From: Cytophagales bacterium
GTDB taxonomy: Bacteria; Bacteroidota; Bacteroidia; Cytophagales; UBA9547
Reading direction: 5' to 3'
DNA: 64,000 nt
Assembly: GCA_013297755.1 (NCBI GenBank)
Contig: JAAFIH010000017.1
Span: forward strand, 26,264 to 90,263
Below are positions 7,767-63,500 of this stretch, piece by piece. The notes beneath the pieces were generated by a model. The model was not told the DNA's origin, did no database searches, and worked only from the letters and a program-made list of their open reading frames with translations. The position numbers were made by a program, and so were the translations under genes. Each line of letters begins with the position of its first letter. The stretch's first letter is position 1.

Positions 7767-8288
7767 ATGGAAATAATTACTGATTTAATCAAAATATTTT
7801 TACCTTCTATTACAGTCATGTATGGAATATTTTTGGTTGTAAAAGCATTTTTAAACAAAGAATATGAAAAAAAAATCTTAGAGTTGAAAATGGATAACAC
7901 CAAAATTGTTTTACCTATAAGAATGCAAGCCTACGAGAGAATATGCTTGTTTTTGGAGCGTATTTCGCTCAACAATTTGATTATAAGGGTAAACAATCCT
8001 GCTTTCAATTCTGCTCAACTGCAACAAGCCCTATTGGCTGAAATAAGAAATGAATACAACCATAATTTGTCGCAACAAGTGTATATGAGCGATGAATCTT
8101 GGTTGCAAGTACGCAAAGCCATGGAGGATATAGTAGGAATTATTAATTCGGCAGCCGAACAAACCCCCAATGATAGTAGAGGTATTGAATTAGCAAAAAA
8201 AATATTTGAAAATCTACTTTCGAGGACACAAGACCCTGTATATCAGGCTCTTACGTATGTAAAAAATGAAATAAGAATTGTATTTTAA
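7767..8288 (+). CDS. hypothetical protein with an N-terminal TM anchor
   Basis: ORF 17 nt downstream of sufD on the same strand, with an N-terminal hydrophobic helix. No family was recognised. Confidence 0.4.
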   Translation: MEIITDLIKIFLPSITVMYGIFLVVKAFLNKEYEKKILELKMDNTKIVLPIRMQAYERICLFLERISLNNLIIRVNNPAFNSAQLQQALLAEIRNEYNHNLSQQVYMSDESWLQVRKAMEDIVGIINSAAEQTPNDSRGIELAKKIFENLLSRTQDPVYQALTYVKNEIRIVF

Positions 8289-28335: not shown

Positions 28336-30789
28336 ATGTTCAATTCAACTACGTTTCTCAAGCTGAGAAATAAATTATGTTCAATCACGGCATCTGCAGC
28401 CCTTTTTGCTTTTAGTGCAAATGCAGAAGACAATAACCCTACGCTCTGTGGCGGTATTTTAGCTACCATACCAGGTGGTATGGGTATAGTAACTACTGCT
28501 GGACCTGCAAGTGGTGTATATGAGGGAGGAATAATGCCTATGGCAACGCTTACATTTACATCTTCGTTTATGCCAGACCCAATGAACCCTTCTAGTCCCT
28601 CTTTTAAGGTTGTAATTGATGGAGTTTTACAAAATAATGCACAACCATCCGGCACTAATATTTTTGTAATATCTCAAAATGCTAGCTTGGTTGGCACAAA
28701 AACCTACTCTGTAGTTATTGCACAACAAGAGCAAACAGAACAAACTTGGTGCTACAAAACTGCTACTGGTATTTCTATTATTATAACTCAAGCTGCTTGT
28801 CAGTCTATTACATCTGTATCTTTTTCGGCAGATAAAAATGCAGTTACTTTGGTTGGAGATGATATGAACAAAATGCAATATAATGAACAAATTATACCAA
28901 CTATTGTCGGAGGTAATTTTTTAGAAGCAATGCCTATTACCGATGGTTTAGAAGGGGCATTTCAGCCTTTTGATATAGCATTTAGTAGACTAAACTATGG
29001 TGCTTCTTTTCAAGATGGTTCTACAACTAAAACTTATGCTTACAAATTTAGAAACTCTTGTAGCACTGTAACTTCTAATGTCTTGAGTTTGACAGTAACC
29101 ACTGTGGCAAGTTTGCCATGCGACCCTATCAATTTTGTAGGATCAAATGCACCAACAACTATACCAGGTTTGTTGCAAGGAAATCAATTACAAGCAAATT
29201 TGAATGTAAACACAACTTTTAGTGGTAATAATTTGCAATATGCTTGGAGCTTAAACGGACAACCCGTAATGCAACCTATGGCTTCTGCTGATTTTAATAT
29301 ATCCTCAGAACTAACGATTGGAACTAATAACTATACAGTTACGGTTTCGGCAGGTGGTGTTTGTAGTGCTTCTGTAACACCAGTGGTACAATCATTTTCA
29401 GTAAATGTAATTACAGTTACTGCTTTGCCATGTCAAGCTGCTCCAACTATTTTTGAATTTGGATTTGATATTGGTGGCGGAAATAGAGTAAATTCTACAA
29501 CTATTACTCAATGTGGCAATGGTGGCATATCACACAATGTAGGTGTGGGAAGCGAAGGTCCAAACGATGTAAATGGCTTACGATTTATATATTATAAAGA
29601 CCAGATAGAAATTGGTAGAAATTATAGTAATTATTTCAACATTTCAACATCTACAGCAGGCACAAGTATATATACCATGCAAGCAATTAATAATTGTGGT
29701 ACTACCACATCGCCTTTAAACTTAAACACATCTATTACTATTCAAGGTAATTTAACATCATGTGGAAATAATAATGGTGGTGGAAACGGTGGTGGCAATG
29801 GTACTGGTTCTGGTGTAAATTGTTCAAAACCTACTGTAACTGGTATTGGTCAAACTTCGTTGAATGTTACAATCTTTGGCACAGCCATGTACACGGTATC
29901 TGCAACGACAGAAACAGGTAGTATCACTGGTTATGTTTGGTATAAAGCCTTGCCAGGAGTTGTACCACCGCTTACAAACTCAAGTCAAGTTACTACAATT
30001 TTTGGTAGAACCAATACACTCAATATTATGTATGCCACAGCAGATGATGCAGGTTACTATGCTGTATCTGCCATAAACTCATGTGGACGAGATAGTGCTC
30101 CTCATTTCTTTGATATTTCTGTAAATACAGTAGTAGCTCCAGGTTTTGTGCCATCTTTGCCAGCAGTGGCTACCAAAGATTTGGGTGGAGATTTTTCAAT
30201 ACCATTTACTACGCCAGGTTTTGTAGTACCTATTGACGATTCTGGTGATTTTGATTTGGTTTGGGAAAATGTAGTAGGCGTAAATACCGCCAATGGCGAT
30301 ACATATTGTGTACTATTATCAGTAACACCAGATTTTGCTAAAACTTATGAAATTTGTGGACTTACTGCTCCTGGTGTATCAATGACAACAGCTCAATTAA
30401 ACAGTATTGCTGGTATATTGAAACCAAATCTTAGAGAAGAAGCCACTGCAACTACCCAAGAATATTACTATAAAGTAGCACCAGTGGTAAATAATTATAA
30501 AGCGGCTTATTCAGCACCTGCCAAAAAAGCATATCAAAGTGCAAGTTTACAAAGTGTAACTGGCTTGGCATTGGCTCAATCTGATAAAAATTCGGATGTG
30601 GTAGTTTATCCAAATCCTAACAATGGTAGTTTTATGGTAGTAGCTTCTGGTAATGTAGTAATATATAATGTACTAGGCTCAAAAGTTCAATCTTTTGTAG
30701 CCTCTGGTGCTACACAAGTATCTGGCTTGGCACAAGGCATATATATTCTATCTACTGAAACCAAAAAAGTAAAAATAGTTGTTGAATAA
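28336..30789 (+). CDS. secreted Ig-like repeat protein with a T9SS type A C-terminal sorting domain
   Basis: Signal peptide, repeated Cys-bounded Ig-like modules, a Gly/Asn run (NNNGGGNGGGNGTGSG), and C-terminus VVVYPNPNNGSFMV...GIYILSTETKKVKIVVE. Confidence 0.7.
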   Translation: MFNSTTFLKLRNKLCSITASAALFAFSANAEDNNPTLCGGILATIPGGMGIVTTAGPASGVYEGGIMPMATLTFTSSFMPDPMNPSSPSFKVVIDGVLQNNAQPSGTNIFVISQNASLVGTKTYSVVIAQQEQTEQTWCYKTATGISIIITQAACQSITSVSFSADKNAVTLVGDDMNKMQYNEQIIPTIVGGNFLEAMPITDGLEGAFQPFDIAFSRLNYGASFQDGSTTKTYAYKFRNSCSTVTSNVLSLTVTTVASLPCDPINFVGSNAPTTIPGLLQGNQLQANLNVNTTFSGNNLQYAWSLNGQPVMQPMASADFNISSELTIGTNNYTVTVSAGGVCSASVTPVVQSFSVNVITVTALPCQAAPTIFEFGFDIGGGNRVNSTTITQCGNGGISHNVGVGSEGPNDVNGLRFIYYKDQIEIGRNYSNYFNISTSTAGTSIYTMQAINNCGTTTSPLNLNTSITIQGNLTSCGNNNGGGNGGGNGTGSGVNCSKPTVTGIGQTSLNVTIFGTAMYTVSATTETGSITGYVWYKALPGVVPPLTNSSQVTTIFGRTNTLNIMYATADDAGYYAVSAINSCGRDSAPHFFDISVNTVVAPGFVPSLPAVATKDLGGDFSIPFTTPGFVVPIDDSGDFDLVWENVVGVNTANGDTYCVLLSVTPDFAKTYEICGLTAPGVSMTTAQLNSIAGILKPNLREEATATTQEYYYKVAPVVNNYKAAYSAPAKKAYQSASLQSVTGLALAQSDKNSDVVVYPNPNNGSFMVVASGNVVIYNVLGSKVQSFVASGATQVSGLAQGIYILSTETKKVKIVVE

Positions 30790-30799
30790 TGGTAAATGA

Positions 30800-30865
30800 T
30801 TAATTGTTAATTGTTAATTGTTAATTGTTAATGGTTAATTGTTAATTGTTAATGGTTAATTGTTA
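30800..30865. repeat. heptanucleotide tandem array (TTAATTG)x9
   Basis: Read directly: nine consecutive TTAATTG/TTAATGG units starting 11 nt after the stop codon. Confidence 0.9.
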
Positions 30866-30871
30866 AAAAAA

Positions 30872-30897: not shown

Positions 30898-30943
30898 ATC
30901 AATAATATGCTAGATTCATAATTTATAACTCATAATTTATAAC

Positions 30944-31430
30944 TACTATCTACCAACTACCAACTCCAAACTACCAACTACCAACTCCAAACTACTAACT
31001 ACCAACTACCAACTACCAACTATCAACTATCAACTATCAACTACTAACTACCAACTCCCAACTACTAACTCCAAACTCCCAACCACCAACTCCCAACCAC
31101 CAACTCCCAACTACCAACTACCAACTACCAACTACCAACTACCAACTACCAACTACCAACTACCAACTACCAACTACCAACTACCAACCACAAACCACTA
31201 ACTACCAACTACTAACTCCCAACTACCAACTACAAACTACCAACTCCCAACTCCCAACTACCAACTCCAAACTACCAACTACAAACTACCAACTCCCAAC
31301 TACAAACTACCAACTCCTAACTCCTAACTCCCAACTACCAACTACAAACTACCAACTACCAACCACAAACTACTAACTACCAACTCCCAACTCCCAACTC
31401 CCAACTACCAACCACCAACTATTTTCAAGA
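30944..31430. repeat. heptanucleotide tandem array, about 70 units, consensus CT(A/C)CCAA
   Basis: Uninterrupted 7-nt periodicity (CTACCAA, CTCCCAA, CTCCAAA, CTATCAA, CTACTAA, CCACCAA) over about 490 nt, in a single orientation. It is preceded by 2 x TCATAATTTATAAC. Confidence 0.9.
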
Positions 31431-47362: not shown

Positions 47363-47409
47363 AATTCATAATTCATAATTCATAATTCATAATTCATAAT
47401 TCATAATTT
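47363..47409. repeat. heptanucleotide tandem array (AATTCAT)x6-7
   Basis: Read directly. It occupies the gap between the SDR stop (47410) and the vapB start. Confidence 0.85.
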
Positions 47410-48189
47410 CTATAGTGCCCTATCCAAATGCGTATAGCCGCCATCTACATATAGAATTTGCCCAGTTGTGTGTGCCGAAACTTCTGAGGCAAGAAATAAA
47501 ACTGTGTTTGCGATTTCTTCTGCAGTTGTAAAGCGATTTTCAAGTGGAATTTTTGATGTTATTTTCTTTAATTTTTCTTCTGGATTGGCAAAAGTTTTTA
47601 TCCATCTATCGTAAAGAGGTGTATAAACCTCAGCAGGAATAACCGAGTTTACTCTAATTCCAAATGGCAAAAGTTCTACTGCCCATTCTCTTGTTAAAGC
47701 ATTTTGAGCTCCTTTGCTAGCAGCATAACCAGATGTGCCACCCTGCCCAGTTACCGCAGTTTTAGACCCAATATTAATGATATTTCCTTTGGTTTTCTTC
47801 AAATAAGGCAGTGCAAAATGAGCCAAATTATAGTAATGAAACAGGTTTTTGTGCATGGATTCGATAAACTTTTCTGGCGAACCATGTTCTAATCCAACGC
47901 CATCGTTTACACCAGCATTATTAATCAAAACATCGATTTGTCCATAAATAGAAATGGTTTTTTCAATCGCATTTTTACAATCCAAAACATCAGAAAGTTC
48001 TGTTTTAATAAATTGAAATTCAGCTTTGAGATTTTTTAGCTTTTGCTCAATTTCTATTCCAGCAATATCCGAGCGACCCAAAATCACTACTTTTGCACCT
48101 TCAGAAACAGCCCCAAGCGTTATTGCCTCGCCAATACCAGCTCCTCCGCCTGTAACGATGATAACTTTGTTTTTTAATTTTAAATCCAT
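47410..48189 (-). CDS. SDR family oxidoreductase; candidate L-fucose dehydrogenase by context
   Basis: TGGGAGIGEA Rossmann motif, NNAG, and the YxxxK context YAASKGA. Confidence 0.75.
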   Translation of the reverse strand: MDLKLKNKVIIVTGGGAGIGEAITLGAVSEGAKVVILGRSDIAGIEIEQKLKNLKAEFQFIKTELSDVLDCKNAIEKTISIYGQIDVLINNAGVNDGVGLEHGSPEKFIESMHKNLFHYYNLAHFALPYLKKTKGNIINIGSKTAVTGQGGTSGYAASKGAQNALTREWAVELLPFGIRVNSVIPAEVYTPLYDRWIKTFANPEEKLKKITSKIPLENRFTTAEEIANTVLFLASEVSAHTTGQILYVDGGYTHLDRAL

Positions 48190-48196
48190 TTTTTTA

Positions 48197-48284
48197 ATGT
48201 GTTATGTGTAATGTGTAATGCGTAATGTGTAATGTGTAATGTGTAATGCGTAATGGTAATGCGTAATGTTTAATAGGTAATGCT
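48197..48284. repeat. heptanucleotide tandem array (GTGTAAT/GCGTAAT), about 12 units
   Basis: Read directly. It lies immediately upstream of the SDR start; the sense strand reads ATTACAC repeats. Confidence 0.85.
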
Positions 48285-48320: not shown

Positions 48321-49892
48321 CTAGATATTATAAAATTTTATTGCATTTTTTGCCATGATTTTTTCTTGTTCGTTGATACTTAAATCAGAAATATAGTTTG
48401 ATACAATTCCTAAAACTTGTTGATAATCAGCGGCTAGTAAACACACAGGCCAATCGGAGCCATAAATCAATCTATCAGTTCCAAACGTGTTGAAAACGGT
48501 ATCTAATACTTGTCTAAAATCAGATTCTTTCCAACTTTGCCAATGGGCTTCGGTTACCATGCCTGAAACTTTGCAAAATACATTGGGCAAATGTTTAAAT
48601 GCCTGCATATCATTTTTCCATTCACTAAAATCTTGGTTACGAATATCAGGTTTAGCCAAATGGTCAATCACAAATTTTTGATTTGGAAATTCTTGAACCA
48701 GTTCCAATGCCTCTTCCAATTGATGTGGTTTTAGTAATAAATCGTAAGTATAATTTTGGTTTTTAAGCTTTGAAATAAAATATCTAAACTTATCATCAGA
48801 CATAAATCCGTTTGGCTTTGCTTGGATGATATGTCGGAAACCTTTTAATAGTTCGTAGTTGGGAGTTTGTAGTTGGGAGTTCGTAGTTGGGAGTTCGTGG
48901 TTGGGAGTTCGTAGTTGGGAGTTCGTAGTTGGGAGTTCGTGGTTGGGAGTTCGTAGTTGGGAGTTCGTAGTTGGGAGTTGGGAGTTCGTAGTTAGGAGTT
49001 CGGAGTTAGGAGTTGGGAGTTCGTAGTTGGGAGTTCGTAGTTGGGAGTTAGGAGTTAGGAGTTGGGAGTTCGTAGTTAGGAGTTGGGAGTTCGTGGTTCG
49101 TGGTTCGGAGTTATTTTTCTCCGAACTAAAACCTTTCTCCGAACTACGAACTACGAACTCCGAACTATTACCTTTCTCCGAACTACGAACTCTGAACTCC
49201 GAACTATTTCCTTTCTCCGAACTACGAACTCCGAACTCCGAACTATTTCCTTTCTCCGAACTAAAACCTAAATCTGCCCAGCCCACAACACCTTTTATAA
49301 AATCATGTTTTGAAGCCAAATCTAATAAAAACTCTGTTTCTTGCCATGTTTCGGCAGCTTGAACGGCAATAATTCCGTAGTTTGTAGTTGGGAGTTCGTA
49401 GATGGGAGTTCGTAGTTCGTAGTTGGGAGTTCGTAGTTCGTAGTTGGGAGTTCGTGGTTCGTAGTTGGGAGTTCGTGGTTGGGAGTTTTTTTTCTCCGAA
49501 CTCCGAACTCCGAACTCCGAACTATTTTTTTTCTCCGAACTACGAACTAAGTTCTCCAAACTATTACCTTTCTCCGAACTACGAACTACAAACTCCGAAC
49601 TAAAACCTTTCTCCGAACTCCGAACTCCGAACTCCGAACTATTATTTTTCTCCAAACTATTACCTTTCCCCGAACTACGAACTACGAACTCCGAACTATT
49701 ACCTTTCCCCGAACTACGAACTACGAACTCCGAACTATTACCTTTCCCCGAACTAAAATCATCAGGAAGAAATGATTTTTTAATCACTTCCATTCCATCA
49801 CCAATCCAATCAAATTCTGGATTATTTGCATCGTAATTCCAAAAATGCACATGAGAATCTATAAAGTTCACGGTTGGTTGTTGGTTGTTCAT
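48321..49892 (-). CDS. amidohydrolase-2 family protein (L-fucono-1,5-lactonase-like) carrying two in-frame repeat insertions
   Basis: Conserved blocks FIDSHVHFW, GIIAVQAAE, GVVGWADL, KGFRHI, FVIDHLAKP and LIYGSDWPV. They are interrupted by about 126 and about 139 codons of low-complexity sequence. Total is 523 aa against my recollection of roughly 280-290 aa for this family. Confidence 0.75.
   Translation of the reverse strand: MNNQQPTVNFIDSHVHFWNYDANNPEFDWIGDGMEVIKKSFLPDDFSSGKGNSSEFVVRSSGKGNSSEFVVRSSGKGNSLEKNNSSEFGVRSSEKGFSSEFVVRSSEKGNSLENLVRSSEKKNSSEFGVRSSEKKNSQPRTPNYEPRTPNYELRTPNYELRTPIYELPTTNYGIIAVQAAETWQETEFLLDLASKHDFIKGVVGWADLGFSSEKGNSSEFGVRSSEKGNSSEFRVRSSEKGNSSEFVVRSSEKGFSSEKNNSEPRTTNSQLLTTNSQLLTPNSQLRTPNYELPTPNSELLTTNSQLPTTNSQLRTPNHELPTTNSQLRTPNHELPTTNSQLQTPNYELLKGFRHIIQAKPNGFMSDDKFRYFISKLKNQNYTYDLLLKPHQLEEALELVQEFPNQKFVIDHLAKPDIRNQDFSEWKNDMQAFKHLPNVFCKVSGMVTEAHWQSWKESDFRQVLDTVFNTFGTDRLIYGSDWPVCLLAADYQQVLGIVSNYISDLSINEQEKIMAKNAIKFYNI
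48847..49262. repeat. inverted-arm heptamer element inside the lactonase CDS (insertion 2)
   Basis: Plus strand: about 263 nt of TTGGGAG/TTCGTAG units, then the apex TTCGGAG-ttattttt-CTCCGAA, then about 145 nt of CTCCGAA/CTACGAA units with CTATTTCCTTT spacers. Confidence 0.85.
49377..49755. repeat. inverted-arm heptamer element inside the lactonase CDS (insertion 1)
   Basis: About 110 nt of TTGGGAG/TTCGTAG units, then the apex GGGAG-T8-CTCC, then about 262 nt of the complementary CTCCGAA/CTACGAA units in 39-nt higher-order repeats. Confidence 0.85.
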
Positions 49893-49898
49893 AGAGAA

Positions 49899-50255
49899 TT
49901 AAGATTTTATTGATTTTTTTAGTCCACTTATCATTTTGATTATTTCTTCTAATTTTTGGTATTGATTATTAAAGTCTACCTCTAAAATTATATTTCTTTT
50001 TTTTCCAAGATGCAAACAACTAACACATTCTATTGCTGACCTCATGGCTATTGAAAGAAATCTAGCAAATTCAGGTTTTGTCTGACCAGTTGAACCTTCT
50101 GCAATATTTAATACAATAGAATCAGCAGCTCGTTGAAATTGGCTTGATAAAACATACTTTTCTTCGGAAGGGAATTTTTTTATCAAAATATTAACTTCTA
50201 AAGAATAATCTAAAGCCTTTTGCCAAACTTGTAAGTTTTCAAAATTAAATGCCAT
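49899..50255 (-). CDS. four-helix-bundle protein (23S rRNA intervening-sequence protein family, TIGR02436-like)
   Basis: FENLQVWQKALDY...FPSEEKYVLSSQFQRAADSIVLNIAEGS...EFARFLSIAMRSAIE, 118 aa. Confidence 0.8.
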   Translation of the reverse strand: MAFNFENLQVWQKALDYSLEVNILIKKFPSEEKYVLSSQFQRAADSIVLNIAEGSTGQTKPEFARFLSIAMRSAIECVSCLHLGKKRNIILEVDFNNQYQKLEEIIKMISGLKKSIKS

Positions 50256-50256
50256 G

Positions 50257-50437
50257 GTTTTTGGTTTTTAGTTTTTAGTTGGGAGTTCGTAGAATTTAGT
50301 TGGGAGTTCGTAGAATTTAGTTCGTAGTTCGTAGAATTTAGTTTGTAGTTCGTAGAATTTAGTTCGTAGTTCGTAGTTGGGAGTTGGTTGTTCATAGAAT
50401 TGAGTTTTTAGTTGGTGGATTTTAGTTTTGGAGTTTA
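50257..50437. repeat. heptamer array, G-rich orientation (left arm of a large intergenic inverted repeat)
   Basis: 21-nt higher-order unit AGTTGGGAGTTCGTAGAATTT x4 plus TTTTTAG/TTGGGAG units. It is the reverse complement of the array at 50663-50874. Confidence 0.85.
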
Positions 50438-50662
50438 TTTTGAAATTATTAGTCTATCGATTAAATTATTTTTTTTGGGATAAATAGTTACTAAGTGATG
50501 TTACGCTGATTTTTTTTTAAATCATTGTCAGTCTTATTTTTTCAAGCATTCATAGGTTATTAACAATATTAAAATTTCAATAAAATTATAGTTTTGCGTA
50601 ACATCAATTACTAAATATAACTTATTAACTGGATTCGACATAAAATTTAATAAATAATAAAC

Positions 50663-50874
50663 TAATTACAACAAACTACAAACAACGAACAATCGATTCC
50701 CAACTCCCAACCACTAACTCCCAACTATGAACTAAATTCTACGAACTACCAACTACGAACTACGAACTAAATTCTACGAACTCCTAACTACAAACAACGA
50801 ACTAAATTCTACGAACTCCCAACTCCTAACAACGAACTCCCAACTCCCAACTACGAACTCCCAACTACCAACTG
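50663..50874. repeat. heptamer array, C-rich orientation (right arm)
   Basis: It contains AACTAAATTCTACGAAC x3, the exact complement of the left-arm unit, plus CTCCCAA/CTACGAA units. It runs into the last codons of the FAH-family gene. Confidence 0.85.
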
Positions 50875-51807
50875 TCTTTGCTCTCCCAACCCATCTATTC
50901 CCAACTCTACTATATCACCTGCTTTTAGGTATTGTGGTGGATTGAATCCTAATCCTACTCCTGCTGGAGTTCCAGTAGAAATTACATCTCCAGGCAATAA
51001 AGTCATAAATTGACTGATGTAGCTTACCACAAATGGCACATTGAAAATAAAATCATTGGTATTGCTATCTTGCTTCATTTCTCCATTTACTTTGAGCCAA
51101 AGTCTAAGATTGTGCACATCTTTTACTTCATCTTTGGTGGCTAAAAATGGACCAAGAGGAGCAAAAGTATCGCAGCCCTTTCCTTTATCCCACTGTCCGC
51201 CACGCTCAAGCTGAAAAGCTCTTTCACTATAATCATTATGCACACAATAGCCGGCAACATAGTTTAATGCCTCATTTTCAGACACATAAGTGGCTTTTTT
51301 GCCAATTACAATAGCAAGTTCTACTTCCCAATCGGTTTTTTCAGAGGTTTTTGGAATTATAATATTTCCGTTGGGGTCGTTCAAGGCAGTGGTAGATTTA
51401 AAGAACAAAATAGGCTCTTTAGGAATAGGCGAATTGGTTTCGTGGGCATGAAGTCTATAATTCAATCCTACACAAACTATTTTAGATGGACGAGCTACGC
51501 AAGAAGCCAGTTTGGGAGTTGGGGCTTGGGAGTTCGTAGTTGGGAGTTCGTAGTTCGTAGTTGGGAGTTGGTAGTTCGTAGTTGGGAGTTGGGAGTTCGT
51601 AGTTGGGGCTTGGGAGTTCGTAGTTGGGAGTTCGTAGTTCGTAGTTGGGAGTTTGTCCAATTCTAAGGTTTTTAGTTTTTCAAGCCCACCATATGCAAAG
51701 AAATCTTCATTAAAATCTGAAAAGATGCTGCTTACATCATAGATTTTATCATTGGCTAATAAGCCTGGTTTTACTTGATTGTTTTGGTAAAATCGTACTA
51801 GTTTCAT
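50851..51807 (-). CDS. fumarylacetoacetate hydrolase (FAH) family protein; candidate 2,4-diketo-3-deoxy-L-fuconate hydrolase, with an in-frame heptamer insertion
   Basis: PSKIVCVGLNYRLHAHE, WEVELAIVIGK, QWDKGKGCDTFAPLGP and TLLPGDVISTGTPAGVG. A 46-aa LPTTNYE/LPTTNSQ tract lies between the N-terminal lobe and the catalytic domain. Confidence 0.8.
   Translation of the reverse strand: MKLVRFYQNNQVKPGLLANDKIYDVSSIFSDFNEDFFAYGGLEKLKTLELDKLPTTNYELPTTNSQAPTTNSQLPTTNYQLPTTNYELPTTNSQAPTPKLASCVARPSKIVCVGLNYRLHAHETNSPIPKEPILFFKSTTALNDPNGNIIIPKTSEKTDWEVELAIVIGKKATYVSENEALNYVAGYCVHNDYSERAFQLERGGQWDKGKGCDTFAPLGPFLATKDEVKDVHNLRLWLKVNGEMKQDSNTNDFIFNVPFVVSYISQFMTLLPGDVISTGTPAGVGLGFNPPQYLKAGDIVELGIDGLGEQRQLVVGSS
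51514..51651. repeat. heptamer array inside the FAH CDS (single orientation, 138 nt)
   Basis: TTGGGAG/TTCGTAG/TTGGGGC units on the plus strand. The coding strand reads the stop-free CTCCCAA/CTACGAA version as (LPTTN[YS][EQ])n. Confidence 0.85.
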
Positions 51808-54463: not shown

Positions 54464-54467
54464 AATA

Positions 54468-54630
54468 GTTTTTTAGTTTTTAGTTGGGAGTTCGTAGTTG
54501 GGAGTTGGGAGTTGGGAGTTCGTAGTTGGGAGTTCGTGGTTGGGAGTTCGTAGTTGGGAGTTCGTAGTTGGGAGTTAGTAGTTAGTAGTTGGGAGTTCGT
54601 GGTTTTTAGTTCGTGGTTTTTAGTTTGAAG
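54468..54630. repeat. heptamer array TTGGGAG/TTCGTAG (G-rich on plus strand)
   Basis: Read directly. It fills the gap between the ABM-domain gene and the mutarotase gene; the sense (minus) strand reads CTCCCAACTACGAA up to the mutarotase ATG. Confidence 0.9.
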
Positions 54631-54651
54631 TTCCATTTCATAAACACTATG

Positions 54652-54966
54652 TTAGCTATTGTTTTTATTTTCCGATTCAAATATCGTTTCGTAATGTTCA
54701 ACTGTCGGAAACGGGTCGTAATAATGATGCAAAATCTTTTTCCATTCCAAATATTCTGCTGATAGTCTAAATCCAATTGTATGGTCTTCCAAATTTTCCC
54801 AGTCCACAAGCAAAATGTATTTATTTTTCTGTTCCAAACATTTTCGCAATGAGTGTCTCAAATACCCTTTAATAGAACTAATATATTGTCCTGCTATCAA
54901 AAAATCTTTTTCAAAGTTATCTTCTTGTCCACTTTTTACATTCAATATAGCAACTTCTAAAATCAT
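54652..54966 (-). CDS. antibiotic-biosynthesis-monooxygenase (ABM) domain protein
   Basis: 104-aa ferredoxin-like fold pattern (ILEVAILNVKSG...FE..F ... LLVDWENLEDHT.GFR). Confidence 0.65.
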   Translation of the reverse strand: MILEVAILNVKSGQEDNFEKDFLIAGQYISSIKGYLRHSLRKCLEQKNKYILLVDWENLEDHTIGFRLSAEYLEWKKILHHYYDPFPTVEHYETIFESENKNNS

Positions 54967-55155
54967 ATTTCTTCAACTTTTGATTGTCTTTTTGTTCTAT
55001 TGAAGTAAATCAACCCTACTTTTTTTGAAGTTTTATTTACATTTTGTAAAATAAAAGCTAACATTGTTTTTAGTTTTTAGTTAGTTTGTAGTTAGAGACA
55101 TTAAGTTTATTTTTAAAGTTATAATTATATGTATACTTATTTTAATTTTAAATCA

Positions 55156-55307
55156 ACAACCTACTCCCAACACCCAACTACGAACACCCAACTACAAACT
55201 ACGAACTACGAACTCCCAACTACAAACTACGAACTCCAAACCACGAACTCCCAACTACAAACCACGAACACCCAACTACAAACTACGAACTACGAACTAC
55301 TAACTCC
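55156..55307. repeat. heptamer array CTCCCAA/CTACGAA/CACCCAA (C-rich on plus strand)
   Basis: Read directly. It abuts the stop codon of the second fucosidase (55308). A short opposite-orientation array (55066-55096) lies about 60 nt away. Confidence 0.9.
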
Positions 55308-56672
55308 CTACTTCAATTCTATCTCAAAAACCGTATTTATTTTATCGGGCATTGGAAAAGTTTGATAACAAGGTCTATCAACATTTATGTAAACATTTTT
55401 GCCTGTATTATCTCCCCACCAAGTGGTTTCGTACCTGATTTCTGAGCCATCTTGTAAAAGATTCACTCGTTTTACTTTATCTGAATAATCTTTTAAAACA
55501 ATTCCTCCAATGGCAGGATACATTCTGTGAGCGAATAGAGATTTCCCATTAGAAGTAAATATTCCCCAATCATAACGAGGCATAGTACTAGCACCACAGC
55601 CAAATATGCTTTTTCCATTTTTTTGCATCCAATTTCCAACTTCTGCTAAAATATCAGTTGATTGTTTCGGGATTCTACCCAAAGCATCTGGACCAACATT
55701 GAGTAATAAATTACCATTTTTGCTCACACAGTTTACAAGTGTATGAATCACCAAAGGAGCTGATTTCCAATTGTTATCATATCTATTATAGCCCCAAGAG
55801 TTGTTTAAGGTTAAACAAGATTCCCAAGGGAGTGGTCTTCCTAGTTTGTCAGTGATGGCTTTTTCTGGAATAGTTTGTTCTGGTGTGTCAAAATCCCCAA
55901 ATGAATTTTCTTCCATGCCTGTGGTGCCGTCTCCACCCAATCTATTATTTAAAATAATGCTTGGTTGGAGTGTACGCACCATTTCTACTAATTCTTTAGC
56001 TTTCCATTTTTCGCCTTTCATTTCATCATAGCTAAAATCAAACCACATGATGTCTATTTTGCCATAGTTGGTACAAAGTTCTTTTACCTGACCGTGCATA
56101 AATTTGATGTAATTGTCCCAATTGATTTTTTCATCTTTATACTTTTCATTTCCACGCATTGGATGATGGGTATCTTTAAATTTGGGGTAATCAGGATGAT
56201 GCCAATCAATTACTGAAAAGTATAAGCCTACTTTTAAACCCTCTGCACGTAAGGCTTCCACGTATTCTTTGATAATATCACGTTTAAAAGGTGTATTGGT
56301 AATTTTATAATCTGTTTGTTTGGTATCCCAAAGAGCAAAACCTTCGTGGTGTTTGGCTGTGAGTACTACATATTTCATGCCTGCTTGTTTGGCAGTGCGA
56401 GCCCATTCTTTGGCATCAAATAAGTAAGGATTAAAGTTTTTAAAATACGCTTCGTCATAGACTTCGTTAGTTATTTTTTCAACACTTTTGACCCATTCGC
56501 CTCTTGAAGGTATGGAATATAAACCAAAATGGACAAACATACCAAAACGTGCATCACGATGCCATTCTGTGCGTTTGATTTTTGATTCATAACTATTGTC
56601 GTTGGCAGCTGGATTTTGTGCAAAACAAAATATTTGAAAAATCAATAATAATGCTGTATATACCTTTTTCAT
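55308..56672 (-). CDS. alpha-L-fucosidase (GH29), secreted
   Basis: WHRDARFGMFVHFGLYSIPS, YVVLTAKHHEGFALW and GNLLLNVGPDALG motifs, with a signal peptide. Confidence 0.85.
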   Translation of the reverse strand: MKKVYTALLLIFQIFCFAQNPAANDNSYESKIKRTEWHRDARFGMFVHFGLYSIPSRGEWVKSVEKITNEVYDEAYFKNFNPYLFDAKEWARTAKQAGMKYVVLTAKHHEGFALWDTKQTDYKITNTPFKRDIIKEYVEALRAEGLKVGLYFSVIDWHHPDYPKFKDTHHPMRGNEKYKDEKINWDNYIKFMHGQVKELCTNYGKIDIMWFDFSYDEMKGEKWKAKELVEMVRTLQPSIILNNRLGGDGTTGMEENSFGDFDTPEQTIPEKAITDKLGRPLPWESCLTLNNSWGYNRYDNNWKSAPLVIHTLVNCVSKNGNLLLNVGPDALGRIPKQSTDILAEVGNWMQKNGKSIFGCGASTMPRYDWGIFTSNGKSLFAHRMYPAIGGIVLKDYSDKVKRVNLLQDGSEIRYETTWWGDNTGKNVYINVDRPCYQTFPMPDKINTVFEIELK

Positions 56673-57940: not shown

Positions 57941-58170
57941 AGAAGTTCCACTTTTTTGAAAAGTGGAACTTCTACATTTACAAAGATACCATCGCTCCAA
58001 ACAAAGGTATCTTTATCATAAAATTTATGCGTAAGCAAAAGCCCCCTTCGGGGTTCTGTGCATCGAACAGAAGTACTTTCAGGGGGCTTTCTATCAAAAG
58101 CCCCTTTCGGGATTCTGTCCATCGAACAGAAGTACTTTCATGGGGCTTTCCCTGAAGTACCACTTTTTAA
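57941..58170. repeat. mosaic of nested hairpin modules (composite repeat, copy 1)
   Basis: Modules in order: AGAAGTTCCAC-ttttttgaaaa-GTGGAACTTCT; AAGATACC...GGTATCTT; two copies of AAAGCCCCCT..TTCTGT-gcatcga-ACAGAA..AGGGGGCTTT; a degenerate GAAGTACCAC hairpin. The same module order recurs at 63262-63500. Confidence 0.8.
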
Positions 58171-62747: not shown

Positions 62748-62760
62748 GTAACAAAGGATG

Positions 62761-63248
62761 CGAACGCAGACAGGGTTTTGAACCCTGTCTGCGTTTGATT
62801 TTTTAAAGATTCTGTCGCTTGGAGCGATGATTTCTTTTTTTAAACTACAAACCTATAAGGTTTTAAAAACCTTATAGGTTTGCGAACGCAGACAGGGTTT
62901 TGAACCCTGTCTGCGTTTGATTTTTTAAAGATTCTATCGCTTGGAGCGATGATTTCTTTTTTTTAACTACAAACCTATAAGGTTTTAAAAACCTTATAGG
63001 TTTGCGAACGCAGACAGGGTTTTGAACCCTGTCTGCGTTTGATTTTTTAAAGATTCTATCGCTTGGAGCGATGATTTCTTTTTTTTAACTACAAACCTAT
63101 AAGGTTTTAAAAACCTTATAGGTTTGCGAACGCAGACAGGGTTTTGAACCCTGTCTGCGTTTGATTTTTTAAAGATTCTATCGCTTGGAGCGATGATTTC
63201 TTTTTTTTAACTACAAACCTATAAGGTTTTAAAAACCTTATAGGTTTA
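62761..63248. repeat. 4 x 122-bp near-identical tandem repeat, each unit built of three hairpins
   Basis: Units start at 62761, 62883, 63005 and 63127. Hairpins are AACGCAGACAGGGT-loop-ACCCTGTCTGCGTT (+TGATTTTTT), ATCGCT-tgg-AGCGAT, and the perfect palindrome AAACCTATAAGGTTTT/AAAACCTTATAGGTTT. Confidence 0.9.
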
Positions 63249-63261
63249 TTTACCGATTTTT

Positions 63262-63500
63262 TAAAAAGTGAAACTTCTACGTTTACAAATATACCATCGC
63301 TCCAAACAAAGGTATCTTTATCATAAAATTCATGAGTTAGCAAAAGCCCCCTTCGGGGGTTTGGGGGCTTACTATCAAAAGCCCTCTTCGGGGTTCTGTG
63401 CATCGAACAGAAGTACTTTCAGGGGTTCTGTGCATCGAACAGAAGTACTTTCAGGGGGCTTTCCCTGAAGTTCCACTTTTTTGAAAAGTGGAACTTCTAC
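63262..63500. repeat. mosaic of nested hairpin modules (composite repeat, copy 2)
   Basis: Same module order as 57941-58170, in direct orientation, ending with GAAGTTCCAC-ttttttgaaaa-GTGGAACTTC. Confidence 0.8.

Follow-up and report, generated by a model that had tools for sequence, protein, structure and literature searches.

How can a tandem heptamer array that is dense in stop triplets lie within the open frame of an enzyme gene? We studied this question in a window of 64,000 nucleotides (nt) from a Cytophagales bacterium (contig JAAFIH010000017.1, positions 26,264 to 90,263; "the window" is this whole stretch), in which a predicted L-fuconolactonase gene carries two insertions made of heptamer repeats. 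On the coding strand each insertion runs from an arm of AGTT-sense units through an A-rich tip to an arm of AACT-sense units, and both arms are in frame. We refer to the first insertion (protein site 2) and the second insertion (protein site 1); the coordinates of all features are collected in Table 1. The AGTT-sense arms are prone to stops, and they are organized in 13-codon blocks of 39 nt. The imprint of reading-frame preservation on these arms is clear. The initial annotation of the locus held that exact 39-nt repeats lock the arms in their only open frame. The 39-nt period is better described as the product of amplifying a pre-existing coding module under purifying selection than as a frame-locking device.

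Blocks and stop triplets in the AGTT-sense arms

The seven motif starts quoted in the initial annotation were all correct: CCTTTCCCC begins at 49663, 49702, and 49741, and CCTTTCTCC begins at 49132, 49171, 49210, and 49249. Two further exact copies of CCTTTCTCC start at 49567 and 49606, and degenerate copies (TTTTTCTCC) start at 49489 and 49528, with a third at 49645 by our own reading. Nine of the spacings between motifs were 39 nt and one was 18 nt (49645 to 49663), every one of them divisible by 3. The motif pattern had 9 matches in the window, compared with 0 expected from shuffles. Tandem Repeats Finder (TRF) reported a period of 39 nt at 49119-49263 (3.7 copies, 94% matches), 49489-49659 (4.4 copies, 81% matches), and 49650-49755 (2.7 copies, 98% matches). 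Autocorrelation at lag 39 was 0.87 in the stop-prone arm of the first insertion and 0.78 in that of the second, versus 0.34 to 0.47 in the other eight AACT/AGTT arrays of the window, whose best lags were all multiples of 7. The pure 7-nt register is broken in the two coding AGTT-sense arms, where lag-7 identity is 0.60 and an 11-nt spacer follows every one or four heptamers.

In its general form, the block consists of four AGTTCGN heptamers and a AAAGGTAAT-type spacer. Written out, it reads AGTTCGG, AGTTCG[T/G], AGTTCG[T/G], and AGTTCGG plus the 11-nt spacer AGAAAGGTAAT, 39 nt in total, and it translates as SSEF[V/G]VRSSEKGN. Spacer variants include the GGGAAAGGTAAT type, GGTTTT, AAAAATAAT, and AAAAAAAAT. 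On the coding strand, the arm of the second insertion begins with a lead unit and continues with 39-nt blocks from 49736, 49697, 49640, 49601, 49562, and 49523 and an 18-nt block (49658-49641); it codes for SSEFVVRSSGKGN-type 13-amino-acid (aa) repeats and leads to the hairpin tip GAGAAAAAAAAC (approximately 49486-49497). The arm of the first insertion is built from a lead unit, 39-nt blocks from 49244, 49205, and 49166, and one heptamer, followed by the tip GAGAAAAATAAC. The description of these arms as exact 39-nt repeats is accurate for the spacing and not for the sequence, as the nine full blocks differ from each other at 0 to 11 of their 39 nt and one block measures 18 nt. The spacer GAGAAAGGTAAT resembles both hairpin tips, and the blocks nearest to the tips are the most tip-like. 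Since block variants (e.g., the GGTTTT spacer) and an identical lead (TTTTAGTTCGGRGAAAGGWAAT) are common to both insertions, the two arms represent one block lineage and not two independent observations. Block variants have probably been exchanged between the two insertion sites.

Each of the two stop-prone arms has a single open frame, as originally stated: the arms of the first and second insertions hold 10 and 21 stop triplets, respectively, and none is in the frame of the open reading frame (ORF). The density of stop triplets (6.4 and 7.8 per 100 nt) can be compared with 6.1 to 11.9 per 100 nt in the other arrays read in the AGTT sense, and each frame of the other eight arrays of the window has at least one stop when read in this sense. 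Because the density in the two arms is at the low end of the range of the other arrays and all the triplets are in unused frames, the stops have been phased rather than removed.

The phasing can be followed at the level of single units. An AGTTCGT unit followed by AG creates TAG at the junction. Within the four-heptamer block, a unit at position 1 or 4 would place this triplet in frame, and a unit at position 2 or 3 would place it out of frame. T-ending (TAG-making) units occupied 0 of 22 in-frame positions and 12 of 18 out-of-frame positions 2 and 3 (P = 3e-6 by Fisher's test, and 3e-5 once identical blocks were collapsed; the former value is optimistic because the blocks are related by duplication). 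The in-frame positions always carry AGTTCGG, which changes the TAG to GAG (Glu). AGTTCGG accounts for 25 of the 39 units in the two arms versus 1 of approximately 160 AGTT-type units tallied in the other arrays of the window, and AGTTGGG, the usual partner unit elsewhere, is absent from the two arms. When the same units were randomly reordered (100,000 trials), the ORF frame stayed open in 0.1% of the shuffles for the second insertion and in 2.7% for the first.

These results bear differently on the separate parts of the earlier interpretation. Its view that frame preservation shaped the arms is borne out by the stop phasing, by the replacement of units, and by intervals that are multiples of 3, although for one block lineage only. 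The proposal that the 39-nt period itself locks the frame is not supported: a relative, L005, has one 12-codon module at the same site and in the same frame, which means that the frame had been set by the time the block was amplified. The contrast between 39 nt within genes and 21 nt outside does not work as a frame contrast either, since a 21-nt unit of AGTTCGG-AGTTCGT-AGTTCGT (SSEFVVR) would stay open too. The non-coding array at 50257-50438 does follow a 21-nt unit rather than a 39-nt unit, as first described (Table 1), but 21 is also divisible by 3. The opposite, AACT-sense arm had been called stop-free in all frames with a 7/21-nt period. This is true of the second insertion, with its 21-nt period, and not of the first, which has stops in two frames and a different set of periods (Table 1).

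The RNA folds of the two insertions were long imperfect hairpins (-151 and -147 kcal/mol, with z scores of -8.6 and -10). Arm lengths ranged from 112 to 270 nt and were unequal inside each insertion. The junctions of one insertion read GGTTTT/AGTTCGG and CGAACT/ATTAAAAGG, and those of the other GATTTT/AGTTCGG and AAACTAC/GGAATT. We also considered a miniature inverted-repeat transposable element (MITE) with a target-site duplication and rejected it: the whole insertion is an inverted repeat, and the junctions as we read them have no flanking direct duplication.

Origin of the block

The likeliest history, to which we assign a probability of roughly 0.6, is the in-place tandem amplification of a block that was already in frame, under purifying selection. 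According to this scenario, arrays in the host lineage would have grown in place by slippage or unequal exchange, and purifying selection on the gene would have let only those length changes survive that were divisible by 3 and brought no in-frame stop. The AACT-sense arm, almost without stop triplets, could have grown in steps of 14, 21, or 42 nt. The AGTT-sense arm, with a TAG at every AGTTCGT-AG junction, could have grown only by re-copying a segment already in frame. The amplified segment may have been the arm end together with the tip, that is, four heptamers and a tip-like 11-nt spacer. With two spacers 39 nt apart, unequal exchange would add or remove whole 13-codon blocks, and exchange between the two insertions would spread block variants.

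Relatives of the gene at 52 to 74% full-length identity (65 to 77% in non-repeat codons) keep the gene order, including the neighboring gene for a 23S rRNA intervening-sequence protein (IVP), and have short in-frame heptamer tracts at the two insertion sites and at the N terminus. The module at site 1 of L005, a single one in the same frame, reads GTTCGT AGTTCAG AGTTCGT AGTTCGT AGT GAAAAAAATAAT (VRSSEFVVRSEKNN). It is composed of heptamers and an A-rich hairpin tip, after which comes an AACT-sense arm, and its phase pattern is likewise G,T,T. At site 2 of L006, remnants of both arms are present. The heptamer that L134 uses at the N terminus and at site 2 is a different one (ATTCAAC). Synonymous sites are saturated in comparisons with L005, L135, and L006 (synonymous divergence, dS, of approximately 2 or more), yet the heptamer family is found at the two loop positions. 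Either continual renewal of the tracts or their maintenance at the nucleic acid level would account for this.

The ratio of nonsynonymous to synonymous divergence (dN/dS) of the non-repeat codons was 0.09 to 0.13 against L135 and L006, with synonymous sites saturated; the comparison with L005 gave no ratio, as dS was too saturated. The alignment of Amidohydro_2 homologues shows no variation in the catalytic motifs (among them HxH and the GSDWPV aspartate). Judged from these sequence comparisons, the L-fuconolactonase gene is under purifying selection outside the repeats.

We then looked beyond the relatives. A scan for the block pattern (CCTTTCNCCGAACTNCGAACT) in the genomes of 185,579 species, the source genome not among them, found only four single-match contigs from unrelated metagenome-assembled genomes, which by our estimate is about the chance number for a 19-base pattern in approximately 600 Gb. 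The 39-nt block is not common in other species. When 1.84 billion representative proteins were searched with the arm peptide by phmmer, there were four hits, of which P0123 alone was relevant. This Ser/Thr-kinase/FGE protein (L133, GCA_965330505.1) is encoded by an unrelated gene in a genome with 46% GC. The L133 DNA contains in-frame arrays in which 11 nt follow four AGTTCGG-type heptamers (39 nt) or seven (60 nt), with the codon phase of the fuconolactonase arms and with spacers only loosely similar in sequence, and it is probably a case independent of these arms. At this locus (L133, 99-4766), the kinase/FGE gene is immediately followed downstream by genes for an HRDC-domain protein and a reverse transcriptase, and the neighborhood resembles that of a diversity-generating retroelement.

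An 11-nt spacer preserves the frame only if the heptamers per spacer (k) number 1 mod 3 (1, 4, 7, and so on). In coding sequence, k was 1 and 4 in the fuconolactonase arms and 4 and 7 in L133, and the rule held for every interval seen. The only clearly intergenic spacer-bearing array that we found (L016; n = 1), between a CheW-like gene and the next ORFs, had spacer intervals of 73 and 44 nt by our own summing of the spacings. The five non-coding arrays of the window contain no spacer. Short in-frame AGTT-sense tracts elsewhere use stop-free units only (AGTTCGG and AGTTCAG in L094 and AGTTCGA in L111). These cases from outside the window agree with a frame-constrained architecture, but they are few and far from a census.

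A protein search with the AACT-sense arm yielded 2175 candidates and 16 weak hits, mostly short ORFs called across arrays; among the weak hits were two IVP proteins, one M48 peptidase, and one LipB-like protein. The result hints, only crudely, at more frequent translation or calling of the stop-free orientation. Three CGAACT units, looked for in metagenomes, were present at 120 loci, mostly short arrays on unrelated, often high-GC contigs with unreliable ORF calls and too heterogeneous a set for comparing intragenic with intergenic arrays, and a scan of viral contigs for the 18-nt spacing found no match. Arrays of CGAACT/AGTTCG, often as AGTT-then-AACT hairpins, are also present in contigs of 50 to 71% G+C from other phyla (L012, L017, L039, L088, L104, L109, L121, and L126). 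The heptamer family is far more widespread than the host lineage.

Several points weigh against in-place amplification. The block is known from one gene in one genome, with two arms that are not independent. The absence of in-frame stops in an intact gene is partly a survivorship statement. Selection accounts for divisibility by 3 and not for 39 in particular, as a 21-nt pattern is equally good. We infer the stepwise gain and loss of 39-nt blocks rather than see it, translation of the insertions is read from the open frame, and the activity of the enzyme is a prediction. Finally, the four heptamers plus 11 nt in L133 could mean that the block was inherited from a wider repeat family.

This last point leads to a different, rather unlikely origin, in which a dispersed repeat element already had the 39-nt block as a unit of its own before entering the gene, the insertions are two copies of that element, and selection acted only by keeping the landings that were in frame. 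The shared lead and block variants of the two insertions fit such an element, as does the recurrence of the same 4 + 11 = 39-nt layout and codon phase in the unrelated kinase/FGE gene of L133 at 46% GC, and CGAACT/AGTTCG heptamer arrays and hairpins are known in many phyla. However, the 64-kb window has no further copy of the block despite its eight other arrays of the family, and the scan of 185,579 species gave about as many matches as chance would. The short tracts of the relatives at both sites, a single module in one of them, fit in-place growth, and the spacers of L133 are only loosely alike in sequence.

It is also conceivable, if doubtful, that the heptamer hairpins are maintained sequence-specific RNA or DNA elements of the Bacteroidota lineage, with the 39-nt block as their coding-compatible form. 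The finding that bears on this idea is the presence of the family at the same positions in the enzyme genes and flanking 23S rRNA intervening sequence (IVS) protein genes of genomes whose synonymous sites are saturated. If the hairpins are maintained, they might, for example, mark places where the operon mRNA is processed or regulated, and the recurrence of the layout in L133 would reflect either a general solution or a shared origin.

Selection could have acted on the protein instead, with the 13-residue repeat (SSEFVVRSSEKGN) favored as, for example, a flexible Ser/Glu/Lys-rich tether or surface loop, and the 39-nt period stemming from ordinary protein-repeat evolution instead of stop avoidance. 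The repeat is hydrophilic, disorder is predicted for it, its block variants are mostly conservative as peptides, and P0123 has similar 13-aa acidic Ser-rich repeats beside a transmembrane segment. We nevertheless find this improbable. The heptamers are those of the surrounding non-coding arrays and the arm pairs as a hairpin with the next arm, which places the origin of the repeat at the nucleic acid level. Moreover, the other listed homologues are 287 to 323 aa long and have no long loops, and the strict phasing of TAG-making units is accounted for by stop avoidance and not by a peptide function.

Still less probable is that the heptamer tracts act as a phase-variable switch, with slippage by 7 nt silencing the enzyme and the 39-nt blocks being only incidental. 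A 7-nt unit in an ORF is, as is well established, the classic layout of a contingency locus (PMC4679880), and the AACT-sense arms contain runs of near-identical units. On the other hand, alternating units (14- and 21-nt patterns) and an interruption every four units reduce 7-nt slippage, the gene encodes a sugar-catabolic enzyme of a conserved operon and not a surface antigen, and no out-of-frame allele was found, among one database copy of this species' gene. Short-read assemblies of the same organism (L130 to L132) do not extend over the gene. That the gene is a decaying pseudogene with a frame open by chance is hardly credible and was rejected on the shuffle, dN/dS, and stop-phasing evidence: the insertions do nearly double the protein length and interrupt the TIM barrel, but the 1572-nt ORF, at 31% GC, crosses 426 nt with 31 stop triplets that are all out of frame, shuffling keeps the frame open in just 0.1% and 2.7% of trials, and the catalytic residues are intact at a dN/dS of approximately 0.1.

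The host gene and other repeats of the window

The G+C content of the window is approximately 31%, and the genome is that of a low-GC Bacteroidota member with abundant tandem AACTNNN/AGTTNNN heptamer arrays. Around the repeat-bearing gene there is a minus-strand operon of the L-fucose type. L-Fuconolactonase is the name of many of the listed Amidohydro_2 homologues, some of which are assigned to Bacteroidota. All 119 of the other homologues among the matches listed are 287 to 323 aa in length and lack long loops. The nearest solved structure is an amidohydrolase-2 entry (PDB 4DLF), which was reached via a relative (P0008) and not from the protein of the window. In the alignment, the extra length of the 523-aa ORF is confined to two blocks between invariant core segments (residues approximately 45 to 170 and 206 to 348), corresponding to encoded loops of 126 and 143 residues.

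In the AlphaFold model of the 523-aa protein (mean predicted local distance difference test score [pLDDT], 49.9), both insertions are coil with a pLDDT of approximately 30 and are located between barrel elements. The site 1 insertion is between the helix at 44-47 and the strand at 174-178, and the site 2 insertion is between the strand at 199-204 and the helix plus strand at 344-356. At its low overall confidence, the model predicts loops that are disordered and placed between barrel elements.

Table 1. Positions in the window of the operon genes, the arms of the two insertions, and other heptamer arrays (stops are given per frame)
Feature	Position	Strand	Remarks
Short-chain dehydrogenase gene	47410-48189	minus	operon member
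L-Fuconolactonase (Amidohydro_2) ORF, 523 aa	48321-49892	minus	open across both repeat insertions; Pfam PF04909, E 2.3e-36
AACT-sense arm, first insertion	48850-49112	minus	14/28/42-nt period; PTTNSQLRTPNYEL-type repeats; stops 0/3/2
Stop-prone (AGTT-sense) arm, first insertion (protein site 2)	49113-49268	minus	stops 0/1/9
AACT-sense stop-free arm, second insertion	49376-49487	minus	21-nt period; RTPNYEL-type heptads; stops 0/0/0
Stop-prone (AGTT-sense) arm, second insertion (protein site 1)	49488-49757	minus	stops 0/4/17
23S_rRNA_IVP four-helix-bundle protein gene	49899-50255	minus	operon member; PF05635
Fumarylacetoacetate (FAA)-hydrolase-family gene	50851-51807	minus	operon member
AACT-sense heptamer array, single, in frame	51509-51680	minus	within the FAA-hydrolase-family gene
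Non-coding array	50257-50438	plus	lag 21 = 0.75, lag 39 = 0.36; stops 8/6/4
AACT-type non-coding array	50660-50876	plus	35/21/14-nt periods; inverted partner of 50257-50438; overlaps the FAA-hydrolase-family stop
AGTT-type non-coding array	54467-54635	plus	14-nt period; directly upstream of a minus-strand start codon
AACT-type non-coding array	55176-55308	plus	inverted counterpart of 54467-54635; immediately past the stop codon of gene 55308-56672 (minus)
Intergenic AACTACC array, approximately 69 copies, 497 nt	30927-31423	plus	pure 7-nt periodicity

The window holds ten AACT/AGTT arrays and three arrays of other heptamers in its 64 kb, and several of them abut start or stop codons. TRF periods of 7, 14, or 21 nt were found in ten arrays, and the spacing of AACT/AGTT was mostly 7 nt. 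The single in-frame array of the FAA-hydrolase-family gene adds approximately 35 residues (PTTNSQL/PTTNYEL) to the protein, and in the relative L134 the homologous gene contains AACTACC 4.7 times (8222-8254). The inverted pair of arrays at 54467-54635 and 55176-55308 flanks a 104-aa ORF (54652-54966, minus strand), with a weaker AGTT tract at 55072-55123. Besides the AACTACC array, intergenic heptamer arrays consist of TTAATTG (9.6 copies), AATTCAT (6.6 copies), and TAATGTG (12.7 copies); these arrays, AACTACC included, are at 30787-30866, 30927-31423, 47363-47408, and 48195-48282.

IVP genes (PF05635) were repeatedly seen beside heptamer arrays or between inverted ones. In the window, the gene at 49899-50255 is accompanied by the arrays at 50257-50438 and 50660-50876, and further IVP genes by arrays are those of L006 (1439-1944), L094 (6349-6903), and L110 (3327-3777). 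In L006 and L094, an AGTT arm is ahead of the IVP gene and an AACT arm is after it. The C termini of two IVP proteins (P0140 and P0141) run into PTPNSQL tracts. In Coxiella, heptamer repeats are reported just upstream of the 23S IVS ORF (PMC4990558). IVS-type hairpins may be linked to heptamer arrays.

Two more repeat families were observed toward the end of the window. At 62759-63247, just downstream of a 1349-aa ORF, a 122-nt unit is repeated in tandem as four copies with 99% identity; the unit comprises three short hairpins (GCGAACGCAGACAGGGTTTTGAACCCTGTCTGCGTTTG, ATCGCTTGGAGCGAT, and AAACCTATAAGGTTTTAAAAACCTTATAGGTTT) and has no Rfam match. A tRNA was the sole match in the Rfam scan of the window. 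The second small family forms tandem pairs at 58036-58150 and 63330-63460, with the pattern GGGG(C/T)T...TCTGT(C/G)CATCGAACAGAAGTACTTTCAGGGG and G/C-rich hairpin ends.

Relation to known repeat systems

The fuconolactonase insertions offer a compact natural case of a simple-sequence repeat being reshaped by selection for an open frame, the amplification unit passing from 7 nt to a 13-codon block. Going by the open frame, a conserved TIM-barrel enzyme gene appears able to hold and translate, in two loops, repeat DNA that forms hairpins and spans approximately 270 codons. Should the pattern hold genome-wide, translated arrays would have a signature (spacer intervals divisible by 3 and TAG-making units restricted to two phases), giving a handle on how heptamer arrays spread and persist in Bacteroidota, Cyanobacteria, and Beggiatoaceae.

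Heptanucleotide arrays are known as the short tandemly repeated repetitive (STRR) sequences of cyanobacteria and as the TAACTGA arrays of Beggiatoaceae, Cyanobacteria, and Bacteroidetes (MacGregor 2015, PMC4679880), and long simple sequence repeats (LSSRs) were surveyed by Mrazek et al. 2007, as far as that survey is cited in PMC4679880. One orientation of heptamer arrays carries stops and is hence excluded from coding sequence (PMC4679880). The arrays of the window resemble LSSR and STRR arrays in having 7-nt tandem units at many loci, mostly intergenic and abutting start or stop codons (here, at 50257, 54467, and 55308), and their units share the AACT core of the TAACTGA arrays. Unlike LSSR and STRR arrays, both orientations appear to be in frame here, as a hairpin pair of more than 100 codons in a conserved enzyme, and the stop-carrying orientation is fitted in by means of a higher-order block of 39 nt, whose 11-nt spacer is not a heptamer. 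The literature that we searched contained background on heptamer arrays and no account of 39-nt blocks or of heptamer hairpins that are translated.

Palindromic amphipathic repeat coding elements (PARCELs; PMC2996958) are likewise repeat DNA of palindromic character read as tandem peptide repeats. They are longer modules of surface proteins in Mollicutes and other microbes and neither 7-nt repeats nor loops of metabolic enzymes. Bacterial contingency loci share with the arms a 7-nt unit in an ORF, with a frame shift on slippage, whereas the arrays here are heterogeneous or interrupted and belong to a catabolic enzyme for which no off-phase allele is known. In interrupted microsatellites and satellite higher-order repeats, a short unit is built into a longer amplification unit, and the interruptions reduce slippage in the basic register. 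The arms are similar in that a short unit is organized into a longer amplified one, and they differ in that the length is tied to codon phase (39 and 18 nt, and 60 nt in L133) and in that the ORF is bacterial.

Rickettsia palindromic elements (RPEs) were reportedly described by Ogata and colleagues in 2000 as selfish palindromic DNA in frame within protein-coding genes. They are dispersed copies of defined consensus sequences of approximately 100 to 150 bp. In contrast, the insertions here are simple-sequence arrays of variable length, apparently growing in place, with no fixed consensus length. What the two have in common is palindromic DNA in a conserved gene with the frame kept, a possible RNA hairpin, and an extra peptide between structural elements, a position that is predicted for the loops here, and by this analogy RPEs may be the closest counterpart for in-frame palindromic DNA in conserved genes.

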